This document shows, piece by piece, positions 7,797 to 22,267 of a stretch of 37,579 nucleotides of DNA. The notes under the pieces are model-generated. The model was not told where the DNA came from and searched no databases. It saw only the letters and a program-made list of their open reading frames with translations. How positions within the stretch are numbered: position 1 is the first letter of the stretch; every line of letters begins with the position of its first letter. Position numbers and translations under genes: made by a program. This stretch comes from a virus (taxonomy: Duplodnaviria; Heunggongvirae; Uroviricota; Caudoviricetes), in IMG/VR virus record IMGVR_UViG_2541047812_000004, positions 1-37,579 of that record. The stretch is one strand, 5' to 3'.

Positions 7797-7890
7797 TTAC
7801 GCTGGTTAACAATTCGTGCTCTTAATAATACCAGGCATATCAGGCTGATGAGCGTAAAAAAACGTTTTACATCAGTAAGATTATTATATA

Positions 7891-7906
7891 CTGTAAATAT
7901 AAACAG
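7891..7906 (+). promoter_or_regulatory. LexA (SOS) box CTGT-N8-ACAG
   Basis: Sequence ctgtaaatataaacag matches the CTGT-N8-ACAG consensus with AT-rich spacer, 44 bp upstream of the ATG at 7950. Confidence 0.65.
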
Positions 7907-7949
7907 TGGTTATGTGTACAGTATTGCTTGTGGTGTCATAGGAGGAAAA

Positions 7950-8138
7950 ATGCAGGACTATTTTTTGGAGTCTTTGAAGCTCCAGCGCATTGATTTTTTT
8001 CTTAAGCTTGTAGCGGCTAGTGAGTGTAGTGATGAAGAGAAGGGGCTGGCCCTGCAGTGGGTTTCTGAACTGACAGATGAACTCATGGCAAAAATCAGAA
8101 CCCACGAATACAACCGCTCAATGGATGTCATCAGTTGA
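7950..8138 (+). CDS. Small SOS-regulated protein, possible Tum-type antirepressor module
   Basis: ATG at 7950 with GGAGG RBS (7941-7945); directly downstream of the LexA box. Antirepressor function is inferred from position only. Confidence 0.45.
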   Translation: MQDYFLESLKLQRIDFFLKLVAASECSDEEKGLALQWVSELTDELMAKIRTHEYNRSMDVIS

Positions 8139-8148
8139 GGTGACTTTT

Positions 8149-8382
8149 ATGCGCATTGAAATAATGATCGATAAAGAGCAGAAGATTAGCCAGTCTACCC
8201 TGGACGCCCTTGAATCCGAGCTTTACCGCAATCTGCGCCCCCTGTATCCCAAAACGGTAATTCGTATCCGTAAAGGTAGCTCTAACGGTGTGGAACTGAC
8301 CGGACTGCAACTGGATGAAGAAAGAAAACAAGTGATGAAAATTATGCAGAAGGTGTGGGAAGACGACAGCTGGCTGCATTAA
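8149..8382 (+). CDS. DinI-family protein
   Basis: MRIEIMIDKEQ...LDALESEL...KVWEDDSWLH resembles E. coli DinI (MRIEVTIAK...ALAGEL...ETWESADDWF). ATG at 8149 with GAGG RBS. Confidence 0.75.
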   Translation: MRIEIMIDKEQKISQSTLDALESELYRNLRPLYPKTVIRIRKGSSNGVELTGLQLDEERKQVMKIMQKVWEDDSWLH

Positions 8383-8517
8383 GAAACGTTGCTGGCGTCT
8401 GAACTTGTTTCTGGCGTCAGCAAGGTTGAACAACGAGCCCTTGCGAGGCGTTAGCTCTGTAGTGCATGTCTATGCCGCATGAGATCGCATGATCGTTTGA
8501 GGATCGTTTTTGCTAAG

Positions 8518-8542
8518 GCCCGCCAGAACTGGCGGGCTTTTG
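8518..8542 (+). terminator. Rho-independent terminator (GC hairpin plus T-tract)
   Basis: gcccgccag-aa-ctggcgggc followed by ttttg. Confidence 0.6.
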
Positions 8543-8684
8543 CGTAGATCATGCAGGTGCATGAAAACCACTACATAAAGCGGGCAGGCGTGGCGGGGAT
8601 ACGAGCGCGCGCAAGTGGCTGAGTGGGGGGAAGGCAAAACAAGCACCTGCAAGATGATGGCTGAATGGAAAAGTTTGTTGAAAA

Positions 8685-10763
8685 ATGCTAATTTTAGAAA
8701 CAACATATAAGTTTTTATCCACCTCGTTAAGGCTTTCTATGAGCAGTTTCTTTTATATCCAGCCTGATTTAAAAAATGATACAAATGCTGATTTTTTGAA
8801 CTCTGTTGAAGAGTATGCAAATACTCATCAAATGCAGATTTATGCAATAATGAATCCCTTAGGGGAAAATAAATATAAATATAATAGAGACGATGTTCTT
8901 ATTATATTAAGCCCAGGATACCAATTAGCGTTCGTTGCTTTTAGTGATGATGTTGATGGTATACAAAATTTTATAGAGGATTTTATAGAGGATTTAGGTT
9001 CCTTATCAGATAAATACAATTATAAAGATACAATTGGTAGGCCTCGAGCGTGGAAAGATAAACTTGTTACTGAGTGCTCATACGCTGATTTTAGTTTCGG
9101 TAATCTTGATAAGTTTTTTGATGAAATTAAAATTATTGATGGTGTTCTGGCTAAAAAGAGTGAGTTAATTATCTCTCTCTTAACAGGAAGTATCAATAAT
9201 ATTGATAAAGTTAAAGGCAATGTGCCAGATAATATACTTGACAAGGTTAAGCAAAAGATAATTTTGTTTGACGGAGATCAGACAAGGTTTGTATACCAAA
9301 AATTTGATAAGAAAAAAGTTGTTATTCAAGGATTATCAGGTACTGGTAAGACTGAACTATTGCTTCATAAGTTAAAGGAAATATATTTGGATAAGGAGAA
9401 TTTAAATAGTAAAATAATGTTTACGTGCCATAATAAAATATTGGCAGACAATATGAGAAAGAGAATTCCAGAGTTTTTCAACTTTATGAAGGTCGAGCAG
9501 CAGATTAGCTGGAATGAAAGACTTTGGTGTGTTAATGCATGGGGTTCTCAATATGACGGTAACTCTGGCGCATATAGATATATATGTGAATATTATGGAT
9601 TAAGTTTCTATCGTTTTAGCTATGTGATGACTTTCGATAAAGTATGTAGAATTGCGTTGGATGAACTAAAAAAGTTGCCAAGCAATGAATTTAAGCATTG
9701 CTTTGACTTTATGTTAATAGATGAAAGTCAGGATTTCCCATCAAGCTTCATTGAGCTTTGCGAGCTGGTAACTCGTGATACTATTTATGTTGCTGGTGAT
9801 ATATTTCAAAGTATATTTGATACTAATATCTCTAATGAGATACAGCCAGACTTTCTTCTAAGTAAATGCTACCGAACAGATCCAAGGACATTGATGTTTG
9901 CTCATGGTTTAGGTATGGGGCTATTTGAAGAAGAACCATTAACTTGGTTAATGAATAATGAATGGGAAGCCTGCGGTTATATAGTTGATGAATCGGTAAA
10001 AGGTAAGTTAAGATTAAAGAGAGAGCCACTAAGAAGATTTGAAGATGTAACGGATGCAAAAATACATAGTGTGGAATTAATTAATTCCACATATGAAACT
10101 GAAGAAGAGAATATTTTGGGTATACTCCGTAAAATTAAGGAGGAGAATCCTACTGTTTTGGCTGATGATATTGGTATCATCTTTATTGATCAGGCTAAGA
10201 CTATATTTAAAATCGCAGACAGACTTGAATTGAGCGTGCCTAGATTATTAGGATGGAAGGTTAATAAGGCATATGAAACAAAAGAAAAAATTAAAGACAC
10301 GTTATTCATAAGTAATAAAAACCATGTAAAAGGGTTGGAGTTTCCTTTTGTTATCTGTGTTACTCGTGATATTATCAAGAGCCATTCTTATCGAAATTCA
10401 CTATATATGATGTTAACTCGTTCCTTTATTAAGTCATATTTGCTTCTGGGAGATGGGAATAAAGACTTACAGAATGAGATAGAAAAGGGGTTAGATGCTA
10501 TTAATGAGCATGGTTATATGGATATTAACGTTCCACCGAGAGAAGTCATTTCAAAAATAAGAACAACAATCAAATATGATGAGAAAAATATATCTCATTA
10601 TGATTTGGTTACAAAGGTCTTCGATGACTTACAGATTGAGCCGATATTTCGTACATCCCTGTATAATACAGTAAAAACAATCATGCCTGATTCTTTTGAT
10701 GTCGATAAAATTACTACTCTTGTTCGGTTCAACTATGAAATAATGCTTCAGGAGTCGAAGTGA
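8685..10763 (+). CDS. SF1 (UvrD/Rep-like) helicase-family P-loop NTPase with unknown ~200-aa N-terminal domain; candidate defence protein
   Basis: Helicase motifs read from translation: I GLSGTGKT, II FMLIDESQDF, III VAGDIFQSIF, IV CYRTDPRTL, VI VKGLEFPFVIC. AT-rich. Alternative start ATG 8739 (MSSFFY..., RBS TAAGG) may be the true start. Confidence 0.75.
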   Translation: MLILETTYKFLSTSLRLSMSSFFYIQPDLKNDTNADFLNSVEEYANTHQMQIYAIMNPLGENKYKYNRDDVLIILSPGYQLAFVAFSDDVDGIQNFIEDFIEDLGSLSDKYNYKDTIGRPRAWKDKLVTECSYADFSFGNLDKFFDEIKIIDGVLAKKSELIISLLTGSINNIDKVKGNVPDNILDKVKQKIILFDGDQTRFVYQKFDKKKVVIQGLSGTGKTELLLHKLKEIYLDKENLNSKIMFTCHNKILADNMRKRIPEFFNFMKVEQQISWNERLWCVNAWGSQYDGNSGAYRYICEYYGLSFYRFSYVMTFDKVCRIALDELKKLPSNEFKHCFDFMLIDESQDFPSSFIELCELVTRDTIYVAGDIFQSIFDTNISNEIQPDFLLSKCYRTDPRTLMFAHGLGMGLFEEEPLTWLMNNEWEACGYIVDESVKGKLRLKREPLRRFEDVTDAKIHSVELINSTYETEEENILGILRKIKEENPTVLADDIGIIFIDQAKTIFKIADRLELSVPRLLGWKVNKAYETKEKIKDTLFISNKNHVKGLEFPFVICVTRDIIKSHSYRNSLYMMLTRSFIKSYLLLGDGNKDLQNEIEKGLDAINEHGYMDINVPPREVISKIRTTIKYDEKNISHYDLVTKVFDDLQIEPIFRTSLYNTVKTIMPDSFDVDKITTLVRFNYEIMLQESK

Positions 10764-11389
10764 ATAAAGAGTATTATTTTAGTCTGGAGCAGGCTCAGTG
10801 TGACTGGGCCTTTAAGCCAATACGAACAAAGAAAGATGTTATTGAAATATTGATGAGATTAATCAAACTAATTTCTGTTTATACAGAACCATGCGAACAG
10901 AATGTGGTTGGGAGAGTGAAACTTCATATATCAAAGATGAGTCGAGTTTTCTTCTTTAGTGAAAATAAATATTATTCTCTTGCATTTCCTTTTTTTCTTG
11001 ATGAAATTAATGGTCAGATTTTATTTAGTAGTCCAGAAATGGAGTGTATAGATAGTTTTGTAACATCAAAAGTCATTTCTTTTATTAATGACTCCTCTTA
11101 TTTGAATAGTTCTTCTTGGGCCTTTTTTGAACCATTGTTAAATATTGAAGAACATCAAGGTATTCCCGGGTTTTGGCCTTTTCTTAGAATGTTGTTAACT
11201 TATGAGGATGGTTATATTAGATATGATGTCGATGAAGAAAGGGCTAATGGAAATCGTCATCCATTATATCATTTCGACGTCTTTTATTCTAATCCGCCAA
11301 CGTTTAAAATTGGTTTGAATGCACATTATACAAATGATGAAATGATTGATTTTCTTGATAGGGAAACTGATTGTCGTTATTTGAAATGA
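10760..11389 (+). CDS. Hypothetical protein (209 aa), partner of the helicase-like gene
   Basis: GTG start at 10760 overlaps upstream stop (GTGA) with AGGAG 5 nt upstream; translational coupling. AT-rich; no recognisable motif. Confidence 0.6.
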   Translation: MNKEYYFSLEQAQCDWAFKPIRTKKDVIEILMRLIKLISVYTEPCEQNVVGRVKLHISKMSRVFFFSENKYYSLAFPFFLDEINGQILFSSPEMECIDSFVTSKVISFINDSSYLNSSSWAFFEPLLNIEEHQGIPGFWPFLRMLLTYEDGYIRYDVDEERANGNRHPLYHFDVFYSNPPTFKIGLNAHYTNDEMIDFLDRETDCRYLK

Positions 11390-11390
11390 T

Positions 11391-11422
11391 AAAATTTAGC
11401 TGGCATTAGCCAGCTAAATTTT
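11391..11422. terminator. Bidirectional hairpin terminator between convergent genes
   Basis: Perfect 14-bp inverted repeat aaaatttagctggc / gccagctaaatttt with 4-nt loop, exactly between the partner-gene stop (11389) and the Q stop (11426). Confidence 0.65.
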
Positions 11423-11425
11423 AAT

Positions 11426-18963: not shown

Positions 18964-19357
18964 AGCGGTGCCTTATGTCCGCAATAATCCGGACAAACTG
19001 CATCTGTTTGTGGATAACGGTTCGCTGGTTGCTACGGGGGCCAGCTCCATGTCATGGGAGTACCGTTACACCCTGAACGTGGTGATTGAGGATTTCAGCG
19101 GCGACCAGAATCTGCTGATGGCCCCGGTTTTGCTGTGGCTGCGGGATAACCAGCCCGATGCCATCAATAACCCAGCGTTACGGGAAAAGTTATTCACCTT
19201 TGAGGTGGATATTCTGCGCAATGATGTCTGTGATATCAGCCTGAACCTGCAACTGACGGAGCGTGTGCTGGTCAGCACTGACGGCAGTGTGTCGAGTGTT
19301 GAAGCTGTAGCGGAACCCGATGAACCTGAAGAAATGTGGACGGTAAAACGTGGCTGA
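18926..19357 (+). CDS. R: Tail completion protein (P2 gpR-like)
   Basis: Similar to recalled P2 gpR (FVDNGS..., YRYTLNVV..., PVLLWLRDNQPD). Start placed at GTG 18926 with AGGAG RBS; ORF-track start 18905 is a TTG. Confidence 0.75.
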   Translation: MNKPQSLRHALNKAVPYVRNNPDKLHLFVDNGSLVATGASSMSWEYRYTLNVVIEDFSGDQNLLMAPVLLWLRDNQPDAINNPALREKLFTFEVDILRNDVCDISLNLQLTERVLVSTDGSVSSVEAVAEPDEPEEMWTVKRG

Positions 19358-19796
19358 ACTGCAGAAGGTGGACGACTGGCTGAGTGCCTTGCTGGCGAAT
19401 CTGGAGCCAGCCGCAAGAAGCCGCATGATGCGCCAGCTGGCGCAGGAACTACGCCGGACACAGCAGCAGAATATCAGAATGCAGCGCAATCCAGATGGCA
19501 GCAGTTATGAACCGCGACGGGTAACAGCACGCAGCAAAAAAGGCCGCATCAAACGTCAGATGTTTACAAAGCTGCGCACCACAAAATACCTGAAAACTGC
19601 CGCCAGCGCCGACTCTGCCAGCGTGCAGTTTGAAGGCAAGGTACAGCGCATTGCCCGTGTTCACCATTACGGCCTGCGTGATCGCGTCAGTCGCAAAGGA
19701 CCGGAGGTCCGTTACGCAGAGCGTCGCCTGCTGGGTGTAAATGATGATTTATACTTTTTAACACGCCGCATTTTATTGCAATGGTTGGCGAGGTAG
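19350..19796 (+). CDS. S: Tail completion protein (P2 gpS-like)
   Basis: GTG start overlapping R stop; size about 148 aa as for P2 S. The last ~20 codons run into the AT-rich cargo boundary. Confidence 0.75.
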   Translation: MAELQKVDDWLSALLANLEPAARSRMMRQLAQELRRTQQQNIRMQRNPDGSSYEPRRVTARSKKGRIKRQMFTKLRTTKYLKTAASADSASVQFEGKVQRIARVHHYGLRDRVSRKGPEVRYAERRLLGVNDDLYFLTRRILLQWLAR

Positions 19797-19853: not shown

Positions 19854-21608
19854 TCAATCCCAAAATAAATTATTATTAATATTGCTCATATCGAAAGTGA
19901 AGTTCTTTTCTGTAATAGTTTCGTACCTTTGTTCATAGATTATTTTTACATATCTAAACCCCTGTGTTACAGAGCGAATTTTTCGGGGTTTTGATGCAAG
20001 CATAACAAGTATTTCAAATACTTTATCAAGATAGTTGTGGGTGTGTTCAACTAAAAGGGGGGTAAATTTACCACCTTTTCCAGAATGGACTATGTTATTT
20101 CTTGTTCTATAAATTCTTCTGAGTTGCCATTCTAATCTTAACTTATGGTTATCTAAAGTTGATTTAATTGACTCCGGGGATGAAACTATGTTTTTTATAT
20201 ACTCGAAACGATCTGAAAGCAATGTGTAATCACGAAATTTAGCGGATAAAGATTCCCTTACTGATTCGTATTCAGGAAGAATCATTATATTGGCTAGTTT
20301 GTGTTTCGCTTTTGCTCCAGGTATTCCTTTTAAATGTGAGTTTAGTATGTGTCTATTCCATAACAGCAGGTCTCGGGTAAGGTTGTCAATTAAGGAGTCT
20401 ATATATGTAATATTCAGGAATGGAATTATACTTGCAGTAATATGTTCTATTGTTGCTTGATCCTTGGATTTAGTGTCTGTCGGCACTAATGATTCAAGAG
20501 CTATCCATAGATTTAAAAGCTGATTTTCAACATTTTCACTTTTTAATGCCATTGAATGTAATTGAATACTTCTCAAGAACTTGGCAAATGAACTATTTTC
20601 TAGAGAAAACTCAGACATCAATGATTCAAGACGTTTCTTGGCCTTTTCATGCTTTAAGTCCTTGCATTTTTTCATGGGGTTAAGTCTTTCAGCCACTTTC
20701 AAAGAGTCTGTATCAGTTATAACGAAAGCTTCATTTGACCAAGTAGGTTTATCTTTATGATGATAAATATTTAAAAAGGATGATGCTAATTTAAGTAGGT
20801 TTTCAGCATTCTCTCTTGCTGAATAAGAATCAAAAGCTTCTATATTTGATACGCAAACTATCTTCTTTCGTTGCAGATTTCTAAAAAAAACATGTTGGGA
20901 AAATTCTTCTGGTGGTTCTTTCTCAACAGACAAAGAGAGTCTTTCGAAAGTTGGCTCTGCGCCTAAAAACACTGGTTCAACAATAAAATATATTTTGTAT
21001 TTCTTTTTTTCGAGTTTTATTAAATCAAAAAAAGAAGAGACATCAGTGTTATTTGATATTTTATTATTCCCATAATAAAAAAATTGCTGGGTTAAATTCT
21101 TAAGATTATGTTGGCTAAAGCCAATGTAGAGTAATAAACTGATATAATTTCTTGTTAGCTTGCGTATGATGCTTCTTTCCCAGTTAGGGGATGATAACTC
21201 TTGGGTGATAAGTTCTTCACTTTTTTCTTTATATAATTTGGGTGGTAATTGAATGACCAGCATTTCAATTATTGAGCTTCTCTCTTTAGGGCTTATGTTA
21301 GTATTTTTTAGTTTGTTGAGAAAAGCTTGGTAAGCATCGCCTAATAAATCTTGTGCTACTTTATCACATGACAAGTTATGTATTAATTCTGCGGTTAAAT
21401 GTTCAATATTTTTAGGCTGAATAATACCATCCTCAACATCTTTAATTGTATTTAAAGTTTCTACTCCAATTGTTGGGGTATTCATCACTGAGGGTTTGTA
21501 TGTGTCCAGTGTATAGTCAAATAGCATTTCATCCAGTAATTGCGCAAAATATACTAGTGCTTTACAAGTGTCTGGGCAATCCCATTTATACAAAGAACGA
21601 AATTTCAT
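19854..21608 (-). CDS. Large AT-rich cargo protein (584 aa) with C-terminal HEPN-like Rx4-6H motif; candidate abortive-infection/defence protein
   Basis: Uninterrupted 584-codon ORF, ATG at 21608, opposite strand to flanking S and V, in the P2 orf30 position. C-terminal segment RRIYRTRNNIVHSG fits the HEPN Rx4-6H signature. Confidence 0.7.
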   Translation of the reverse strand: MKFRSLYKWDCPDTCKALVYFAQLLDEMLFDYTLDTYKPSVMNTPTIGVETLNTIKDVEDGIIQPKNIEHLTAELIHNLSCDKVAQDLLGDAYQAFLNKLKNTNISPKERSSIIEMLVIQLPPKLYKEKSEELITQELSSPNWERSIIRKLTRNYISLLLYIGFSQHNLKNLTQQFFYYGNNKISNNTDVSSFFDLIKLEKKKYKIYFIVEPVFLGAEPTFERLSLSVEKEPPEEFSQHVFFRNLQRKKIVCVSNIEAFDSYSARENAENLLKLASSFLNIYHHKDKPTWSNEAFVITDTDSLKVAERLNPMKKCKDLKHEKAKKRLESLMSEFSLENSSFAKFLRSIQLHSMALKSENVENQLLNLWIALESLVPTDTKSKDQATIEHITASIIPFLNITYIDSLIDNLTRDLLLWNRHILNSHLKGIPGAKAKHKLANIMILPEYESVRESLSAKFRDYTLLSDRFEYIKNIVSSPESIKSTLDNHKLRLEWQLRRIYRTRNNIVHSGKGGKFTPLLVEHTHNYLDKVFEILVMLASKPRKIRSVTQGFRYVKIIYEQRYETITEKNFTFDMSNINNNLFWD

Positions 21609-21642: not shown

Positions 21643-21688
21643 AATACATATGTTTTAAGATAAATGCAAGATGTTGAATCATTGCCCT

Positions 21689-22267
21689 ATGAACGCACAA
21701 CTAACCGAAATCATGCGCCTTATCACCAACCTGATCCGCACTGGGGTAGTCACCGAAGTGGACAGGGAAAACTGGCTTTGCCGGGTGAAAACGGGCGAGC
21801 TTGAAACCAACTGGATCAGCTGGCTGACGCTGCGTGCCGGGAATGCCCGCACATGGTGGCGACCATCGGAAGGTGAGCAGGTTGTGCTGCTGAGTCTGGG
21901 CGGCAATCTGGAAACCGCCTTTGCGCTGCCCGCTGTCTATTCGAATCAGTTCGCACCACCGTCTACGTCGGCGGACGCCTGCGTGACAGAACATCCTGAC
22001 GGCGCCTGGTTTGAATACGAACCCGCCACCGGGCGCTGGTATGTCAGGGGCATCAAATCAATGGTCATTGAGGCCGCTGACAACATCACCATGAAAACCA
22101 GTGAGTTTGTGCTGGAGGCTGACCGCACGCGTATTAACAGCGAAGTGGTGATCAATGGTGGCGTTACCCAGGGCGGCGGAGCGATGAGTTCTAACGGGAT
22201 CGTGGTTGATGCGCATCAGCATACTGGCGTTCTGAAAGGCGGCGACACAACCGGAGGCCCGGTATGA
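21689..22267 (+). CDS. V: Baseplate spike protein (P2 gpV-like)
   Basis: MNAQLTEIMRLITNLIRTGVVTEVD... parallels recalled P2 gpV N-terminus; start placed at ATG 21689. Confidence 0.85.
   Translation: MNAQLTEIMRLITNLIRTGVVTEVDRENWLCRVKTGELETNWISWLTLRAGNARTWWRPSEGEQVVLLSLGGNLETAFALPAVYSNQFAPPSTSADACVTEHPDGAWFEYEPATGRWYVRGIKSMVIEAADNITMKTSEFVLEADRTRINSEVVINGGVTQGGGAMSSNGIVVDAHQHTGVLKGGDTTGGPV

Follow-up and report, generated by a model that had tools for sequence, protein, structure and literature searches.

A helicase gene and its remotely DUF2290-related partner as probable anti-phage cargo beside cos in a P2-like prophage

Helicase + DUF2290 and a related gene pair

The interval between gpA and gpQ of P2-like phages and the cos-proximal slot of P4-like satellites are hotspots for anti-phage systems (Rousset et al. 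2022, PMC9122126). Helicase + DUF2290 (Rst_HelicaseDUF2290 in DefenseFinder, helicase-DUF2290 in PADLOC) is one of the systems described there, and its tested member, from a P4-like satellite of Klebsiella pneumoniae SB5961, protects against T7 only (PMC9122126). The partner protein of this canonical system is a bona fide member of PF10053 (HHpred 100%, E 3e-54), and the N-terminus of its helicase is NERD-like at 98.1% (PMC9122126). The subject here is a gene pair that resembles it, carried as a cargo island of ~2.8 kb by the P2-like prophage in IMG/VR virus record IMGVR_UViG_2541047812_000004, all 37,579 nucleotides (nt) of which were analysed (the window). The island is very probably a defence cassette. 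The fuller reading, to which a probability of roughly 0.7 is given, is that it is a two-gene anti-phage defence cassette, dispensable to its carrier, and a sister lineage of the validated Helicase + DUF2290 system. The island and its genes are as follows.

8650..11425, no strand assigned: AT-rich cargo island, between cos and the stop codon of portal gene Q, recognised by its GC contrast
8739..10763, + strand: STM2767-family superfamily 1 (SF1, UvrD-like) helicase, 674 amino acids (aa); an upstream ATG at 8685 (692 aa) is probably unused
10760..10763, + strand: GTGA overlap of 4 bp between helicase stop and partner start, with AGGAG 5 nt upstream of the GTG
10760..11389, + strand: STM2766-family helicase-associated protein, 209 aa, GTG start; a remote relative of DUF2290

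The GC content of the island is 0.321, against 0.512 in the remainder of the window, and a profile along the sequence runs at 0.31-0.35 from 8600 to 11400 and at 0.52-0.60 in the flanking phage genes. The open reading frames 8685..10763 (+, 692 aa) and 10760..11389 (+, 209 aa, GTG start) are the sole long ones in the interval. The GTGA overlap together with the AGGAG before the GTG indicates that synthesis of the partner is translationally coupled to that of the helicase, so that the original prediction of an AT-rich island with two coupled genes stands.

The helicase

That prediction had gene 1 running from 8685 to 10763. The reading frame exists, but the true start is most likely the ATG at 8739, because the NCBIfam model of the family aligns only from residue 20 of the long form onwards, a length of 674 aa is given by RefSeq and shared by most database copies, and 7 nt before this ATG there is an AGG. 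The match to that model, NF053713 (STM2767 family DEAD/DEAH box helicase), reaches 990.8 bits at a cut-off of 550 and extends over positions 2-665 of 665. Pfam finds UvrD_C_2, UvrD-helicase and AAA_19 in the protein, just above threshold. Three of the motifs can be placed as follows.

9330..9353, + strand: Walker A (motif I), GLSGTGKT, residues 198-205 of the 674-aa form
9714..9737, + strand: Walker B (motif II), LIDESQDF, residues 326-333
10401..10424, + strand: helicase motif VI, LYMMLTRS, read in the translation

With AGDIFQSI, CYRTDPRT and VKGLEFPFV in addition, motifs I-VI are all present, and none of their core residues, which include the entire GLSGTGKT and DESQD stretches, varies among 40 homologues. 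Judged from its translation, gene 1 is an SF1 ATPase with intact ATPase and helicase motifs, and its earlier description as an SF1 helicase core fused to an additional N-terminal domain was accurate. A sequence-profile search of the family against the PDB gave nothing at E up to 0.01. PHROGs divides the protein between two families without assigned function, phrog_16361 (residues 23-331) and phrog_13375 (337-684), which suggests that some phage genomes in that database have the gene split or truncated.

Kinship to the canonical helicase is apparent from several comparisons, for which the canonical sequences were taken from the tables of Rousset et al. 2022. The PADLOC model PDLC03002 ("Helicase") matches the first 399 aa of the canonical P4-borne helicase at 2e-134 (447 bits) and is thus the model of that system's helicase; on the window helicase it scores 2.9e-28 (96.5 bits), only over model positions 178-356 of 707, the 1A domain. 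When the two families are aligned with hhalign, they match at 99.85% (E 1.5e-30) over 416 columns (165-608 against 180-646) with 24% identity, and the alignment includes lineage-specific segments, AWG…G-Y among them, and the C-terminal subdomain. Direct comparison of the two proteins by BLASTP gives 26% identity over 215 aa.

The partner protein

The partner matches NF053714 (STM2766 family helicase-associated protein) with 212 bits at a cut-off of 70, over model positions 1-207 of 207. The original prediction saw no recognisable family in gene 2, and in direct searches with hidden Markov models (HMMs) it indeed gave no match in Pfam (E up to 10) or PADLOC (E up to 1). The profile of its family, searched against 1.84 billion representatives with E up to 1e-3, matches 794 clusters (50% identity). 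Searched as a sequence profile against the PDB, the family gave one chance match only. The AlphaFold2 (AF2) model of the partner has a predicted local distance difference test (pLDDT) score of 88; it has no fold neighbour in the PDB, and Foldseek against BFVD found nothing with E up to 0.001. One segment stands apart from the remainder.

11204..11317, + strand: conserved C-terminal core, EDGYIRYDVD … HPLYHFDVF … TFKIGL, the part common to DUF2290

This core is the best-conserved segment of the protein, with 61% mean identity compared with 36-48% elsewhere. Residues G151, Y152, R154, Y155, D158, H167, P168, H171, D173, K183 and G185 are invariant in 59 homologues, and the core is a putative active or ligand-binding site. 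The match of the partner to phrog_13184 is also via the core alone (residues 138-208).

It is here that the partner family aligns with DUF2290, at 83% in hhalign (E 8.5e-6) and, with deeper alignments, at 90% (E 1.7e-6). The aligned region is 46-48 columns long and has the same relative position in the two proteins (152-199 of 209 and 134-179 of 217). It pairs R154 with R136, D156 with D138, H167-P168 with H149-P150, H171 with H153 and K183 with R163, giving a common pattern of R-x-D, ~10 residues, H-P-x-x-H, ~10 residues and K/R. The controls, one reversed and 15 block-shuffled, had E values of at least 0.0086 in 15 of 16 cases, the best, a block shuffle, reaching 4.6e-4. When the 59 homologues were scanned against Pfam (E up to 10), DUF2290 was the only family matched by more than one of them; six members did so, below threshold, the best at 2e-4.

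Gene organisation is also alike. A helicase of ~700 aa directly 5′ of a partner of 216-220 aa is the layout of canonical loci from Vibrio, Gloeothece and an enterobacterial metagenome, and 3-6 bp separate the two genes (loci L010-L015); the window has 674 and 209 aa in the same order, and a 4-bp overlap. Both lineages are present in the P2/P4 cos-proximal hotspots. [In two of the metagenomic loci (L014, 7104-10619, and L015, 2760-6275) the canonical pair is followed by the gene for a 1171-aa protein with AAA_11/AAA_12 helicase domains and a PLDc_2 domain; its architecture resembles the Mokosh-type combination of helicase and PLD nuclease, and the whole is probably a small defence island beside an integrase.]

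On these alignments the pair in the window forms a sister lineage to Helicase + DUF2290. Homology extends over the core of the helicase and the partner's C-terminal core, and the rest has diverged beyond detection by HMMs: the ~150 N-terminal residues of the partner have no detectable relation to the canonical partner, and none is detectable between the helicase N-terminus and its NERD-like canonical counterpart. The kinship to helicase-plus-DUF systems of P2/P4 hotspots that had been suspected is thereby supported for both proteins. Placement in that named family is remote, not clean, as the partner fails the DUF2290 HMMs.

A number of results weigh against the reading of the island as defensive kin of Helicase + DUF2290. 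The window partner has no match to PF10053 or to the PADLOC models PDLC02998 and PDLC02999, even at E up to 10 (Pfam) or 1 (PADLOC), whereas canonical DUF2290 proteins score 1.8e-77 and 1.1e-28 on the same models. Pairwise BLASTP of the partner with a canonical DUF2290 protein finds nothing, and the confident profile alignment amounts to ~47 of 209 residues; forcing a long hhalign alignment did not widen the confident region past the C-terminal core. The comparison of helicase N-termini between the window family and the canonical one is not significant in hhalign (E 0.035, 1.5% probability). The window lineage is absent both from the tables of tested systems of Rousset et al. (S2A/S2B) and from the accessions in the cloned-system tables of DefensePredictor, and no published mechanism for canonical Helicase + DUF2290 was found in the literature searched.

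Possible mode of action

The two proteins may form a complex. By analogy with Gabija and Hachiman, the helicase would be an ATP-driven sensor or motor that engages phage DNA, for example at free ends or replication intermediates. The cluster of Arg, Asp, His, His and Lys in the partner would be the effector site, either of a metal-dependent hydrolase or for nucleotide binding, and the partner, once licensed by the helicase, would by the same analogy block phage replication. Its faster-evolving N-terminal 150 residues may set specificity. This leaves the N-terminal domain of the helicase to be accounted for.

8739..9233, + strand: helicase N-terminal domain, residues 1-165, delimited by AF2 secondary structure and invariant columns

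The topology of this domain in the AF2 model is alpha-beta-beta-beta-alpha, a predicted fold compatible with a NERD or PD-(D/E)xK-like one. The strongly conserved block FIEDFIEDLGSLSDKYNYKDTIGRPRAW stands out in it. The strands, DDVLIILSPGYQLAFVAF, contain no visible D…ExK triad, and there is none among the invariant columns of the family either; the invariant residues of the domain fall in the block after the strands, FIEDFIEDLGS.SDKY.YK..IGRPR.W. A Pfam scan of 40 family members gave no match at all for the N-terminal 165 residues, NERD (PF08378) included. Because no catalytic residues are visible, the domain is considered nuclease-like but apparently non-catalytic, with DNA-end binding, partner binding or oligomerisation as its more likely functions.

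The roles could be distributed the other way round, with a NERD-like nuclease at the N-terminus of the helicase as effector and the DUF2290-like partner as phage sensor or regulator, by analogy with other defence systems that combine a sensor with a nuclease/helicase. Rousset et al. annotated the N-terminus as NERD, the domain scores 98.1% for NERD by HHpred in the tested homologue, and the AF2 topology would fit a PD-(D/E)xK fold. In addition, the partner evolves faster than the helicase (40% identity compared with 62% between P2-type and P4-type copies). Fast evolution is typical of components contacting phage proteins. This reversal is nevertheless doubtful, for the D…(D/E)xK triad is missing from both the strands and the invariant columns, Pfam NERD matches none of the 40 members, and it is the partner that holds the most enzyme-like invariant cluster of the pair, in what is also its most conserved segment.

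Within the preferred reading of the island as a defence cassette akin to Helicase + DUF2290, a bolder proposal is put forward tentatively and is itself rather improbable: that STM2766 and DUF2290 constitute a superfamily with a fold not yet seen among solved or viral predicted structures, that their Arg-Asp-His-His-Lys/Arg cluster is a new type of helicase-licensed effector site, for example of a nuclease or nucleotide-processing enzyme whose chemistry would be unfamiliar, and that the phage range of the P2-borne system differs from the T7-only range of the canonical one. Were this so, the pair would be an entry point to the mechanism of the whole Helicase-DUF2290 group. Comparison of the two lineages already narrows the partner to one small invariant core, R-x-D…H-P-x-x-H…K/R, as candidate active site. 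The same core suggests a widening of the detection models for this system, and the partner of this large sister lineage is missed by Pfam and PADLOC models.

Distribution and the case for defence

Of 5426 complete E. coli genomes, five have the exact island (99.7% identity), in every case in the same prophage slot; most P2-like prophages are without it. Among IMG/VR loci with the pair, at 61-87% identity, it lies beside P2-type Q and P genes in four of five, and in all nine independent loci of the window lineage the helicase gene is immediately 5′ of the partner gene. Homologues with 62% (helicase) and 40% (partner) identity are encoded by P4-like satellites of Klebsiella and Enterobacter (L004-L007, pair at 7967-10630), the partner thus diverging faster between P2-type and P4-type copies. 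There the pair is in the cargo slot at the satellite end, after integrase, AlpA and primase (D5_N/Pox_D5). Because the STM2767/STM2766 pair also fills this slot, both lineages of the system circulate in P4 hotspots. A chromosomal pair is found in Emticicia (Bacteroidota), adjoining a helix-turn-helix/peptidase-M78 gene. Searches of an isolated-phage collection with megablast and tblastn gave no match.

The cassette might instead serve the element that carries it, as an accessory helicase module of P2/P4-type elements that helps replication, recombination or packaging, or else be a selfish addiction module. It does adjoin cos and genes for replication and packaging, no phenotype is known for the window lineage, and SF1 helicases are common in phage DNA metabolism, a weaker PHROG match of the window helicase being to phrog_1967, "DNA helicase" (6e-16). 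The strongest PHROG matches of both proteins are, however, to families without assigned function. A service role is unlikely for a pair that most P2-like prophages dispense with, that also exists outside phages on a Bacteroidota chromosome, and that occupies a slot which in relatives is taken by exclusion or defence genes. Among characterised systems, the one closest to it has been validated as a defence system, and the DefensePredictor log-odds of 8.9 point in the same direction.

Earlier records of the pair

The original prediction offered the system as an undescribed one, and in this it was mistaken: the pair is already described in two published catalogues, besides having NCBIfam families, and will not surprise specialists. 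Entry 119 of Table S5 of Rousset et al. 2022 (PMC9122126) reads "DUF2290 | NERD/AAA_19/UvrD_C" and covers 26 P2 loci. P136S is the only difference between its partner and that in the window, and the part of the helicase given in the table, 399 residues, is identical. NZ_CP029057, the best E. coli match (H1), appears in the per-locus sheet, with WP_001031670 there as "hypothetical" (PMC9122126). In DefensePredictor 2026 (PMC13092281), Table S10 has the 209-aa protein, cluster WP_001031670.1, as "Putative novel defense gene", with a mean log-odds of 8.90 at a strict cut-off of 4. The nearest known relative given is Rst_HelicaseDUF2290~DUF2290, with probability 95.2 and coverage 0.239 (PMC13092281), which is essentially the hhalign result for the partner against DUF2290. 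Literature searches on DUF2290, STM2766/STM2767 and the WP accessions brought up neither a functional nor a mechanistic study of this lineage.

NF053713 and NF053714 are naming families only, without functional or defence annotation; both window proteins are full-length members above the curated cut-offs, and RefSeq annotates the copy of E. coli N9 under these names.

That the island is an independent, previously undescribed defence system, which merely converged with Helicase + DUF2290 on the generic layout of an SF1 helicase plus a small protein, would fit the failure of the partner in DUF2290 HMMs and pairwise BLASTP, the partial PADLOC match of the helicase and the separation of the partner from known-system calls in DefensePredictor, but is very improbable given a helicase profile match beyond generic SF1 similarity, partners that agree in size and in the identity, order and relative position of their invariant residues (the controls being far lower), intermediate partner homologues that touch the DUF2290 HMM, and the label of DUF2290 plus NERD/UvrD already applied by Rousset et al.

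Other described systems were considered. Gabija likewise joins a UvrD-like SF1 helicase to a second protein, and GajB HMMs match the window helicase core weakly (E 8e-7 to 0.035). It was rejected, as a GajA, OLD, TOPRIM or ABC-ATPase partner is missing and the GajB matches are short (~65 aa) and far weaker than that of PDLC03002. Hachiman, Nhi and DRT helicases were rejected as well, the partner being missing or HMM support lacking.

The locus and its borders

Around the island the gene set is that of a P2-like prophage, in which integrase, CI, Dam-like methylase, replication endonuclease A and DinI come before it and portal Q, terminase P and the genes for capsid and tail after it, in agreement with the earlier assignment to the variable A-Q locus. 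The features that delimit the cargo are the following.

8512..8549, + strand: terminator-like GC-rich hairpin (inverted repeat I9, 8512-8526 / 8529-8543) then a T-run, TTTTGC, 3′ of the DinI-like gene
8587..8605, no strand assigned: prophage cos, 19-nt cohesive-end sequence GGCGTGGCGGGGATACGAG, matching P2 cos GGCGAGGCGGGGAAAGCAC; left edge of the cargo slot
11390..11423, no strand assigned: AT-rich hairpin, arms 11390-11404 / 11409-11423, 15 bp, 100% complementary, with a 4-nt loop

The P2 cos junction aligns with window positions 8555 to 8612, a length of 58 nt, at 78% (E 2e-8). Since the prophage cos maps to 8587-8605, the island is between cos and the stop codon of Q, that is, at the left end of the packaged genome. 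An inverted repeat flanks cos (8548-8563 / 8640-8655, ATCATGCAGGTGCATG / CAAGCACCTGCAAGAT, 88% complementary), and the island begins just past its right arm. The slot had been likened to that of tin and old in P2. Like them the island is non-essential AT-rich cargo in the gpA-gpQ interval, but in the P2 reference phage tin and old are between A and cos and transcribed leftward, while here the cargo is on the Q side of cos and transcribed rightward. The locus thus shows that cargo of P2-type phages can occupy either side of cos. The products are unrelated: neither Old nor Tin has a match in PADLOC, Pfam or NCBIfam, as had been anticipated, and both were rejected as identities for the pair.

Between gene A and cos there are a small open reading frame without Pfam match, within 7848..8138 (a 62-aa hypothetical protein in RefSeq), and the DinI-like gene, 8149..8382 (Pfam DinI 6.6e-23). 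Both, and the GC-rich hairpin that follows, belong to the phage backbone and not to the AT-rich island. The terminator-like hairpin at 8512-8549 would insulate the island from the early A-DinI operon, and the island should therefore carry its own promoter. In the stretch from this terminator to the start of the helicase, a consensus scan detected no sigma-70 promoter. Inspection by eye turned up TGGAAA-N17-(TGc)TAATTT at 8666-8694, a weak candidate at most.

At the other end, the perfect hairpin described earlier against Q is present and perfect, but has arms of 15 bp at 11390-11423 instead of 14 bp at 11391..11422. It folds at -20.8 kcal/mol (z = -7.5; none of 200 shuffles folds equally well), sits between the convergent partner gene and Q, and is unlike the GC-rich tQ terminator of P2 in sequence. 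It is probably a bidirectional terminator brought in with the cargo. The only Rfam matches in the island were chance ones below threshold, on this hairpin.

A second AT-rich island (GC ~0.33) is present in the window, in the slot of P2 orf30, with an open reading frame of 584 aa at 19854..21608 (-). It is flanked by a virion-morphogenesis gene (19350..19796) and baseplate gene V (21671..22267). The 584-aa product has no Pfam match and matches PADLOC ApeA (PDLC02157) with E 1.4e-13 over residues 337-535, and is likely a second, single-gene defence cargo of HEPN/ApeA-like type. A related prophage of E. coli N9 has a different gene, of 218 aa, in its orf30 slot (L001, 23572..24228).

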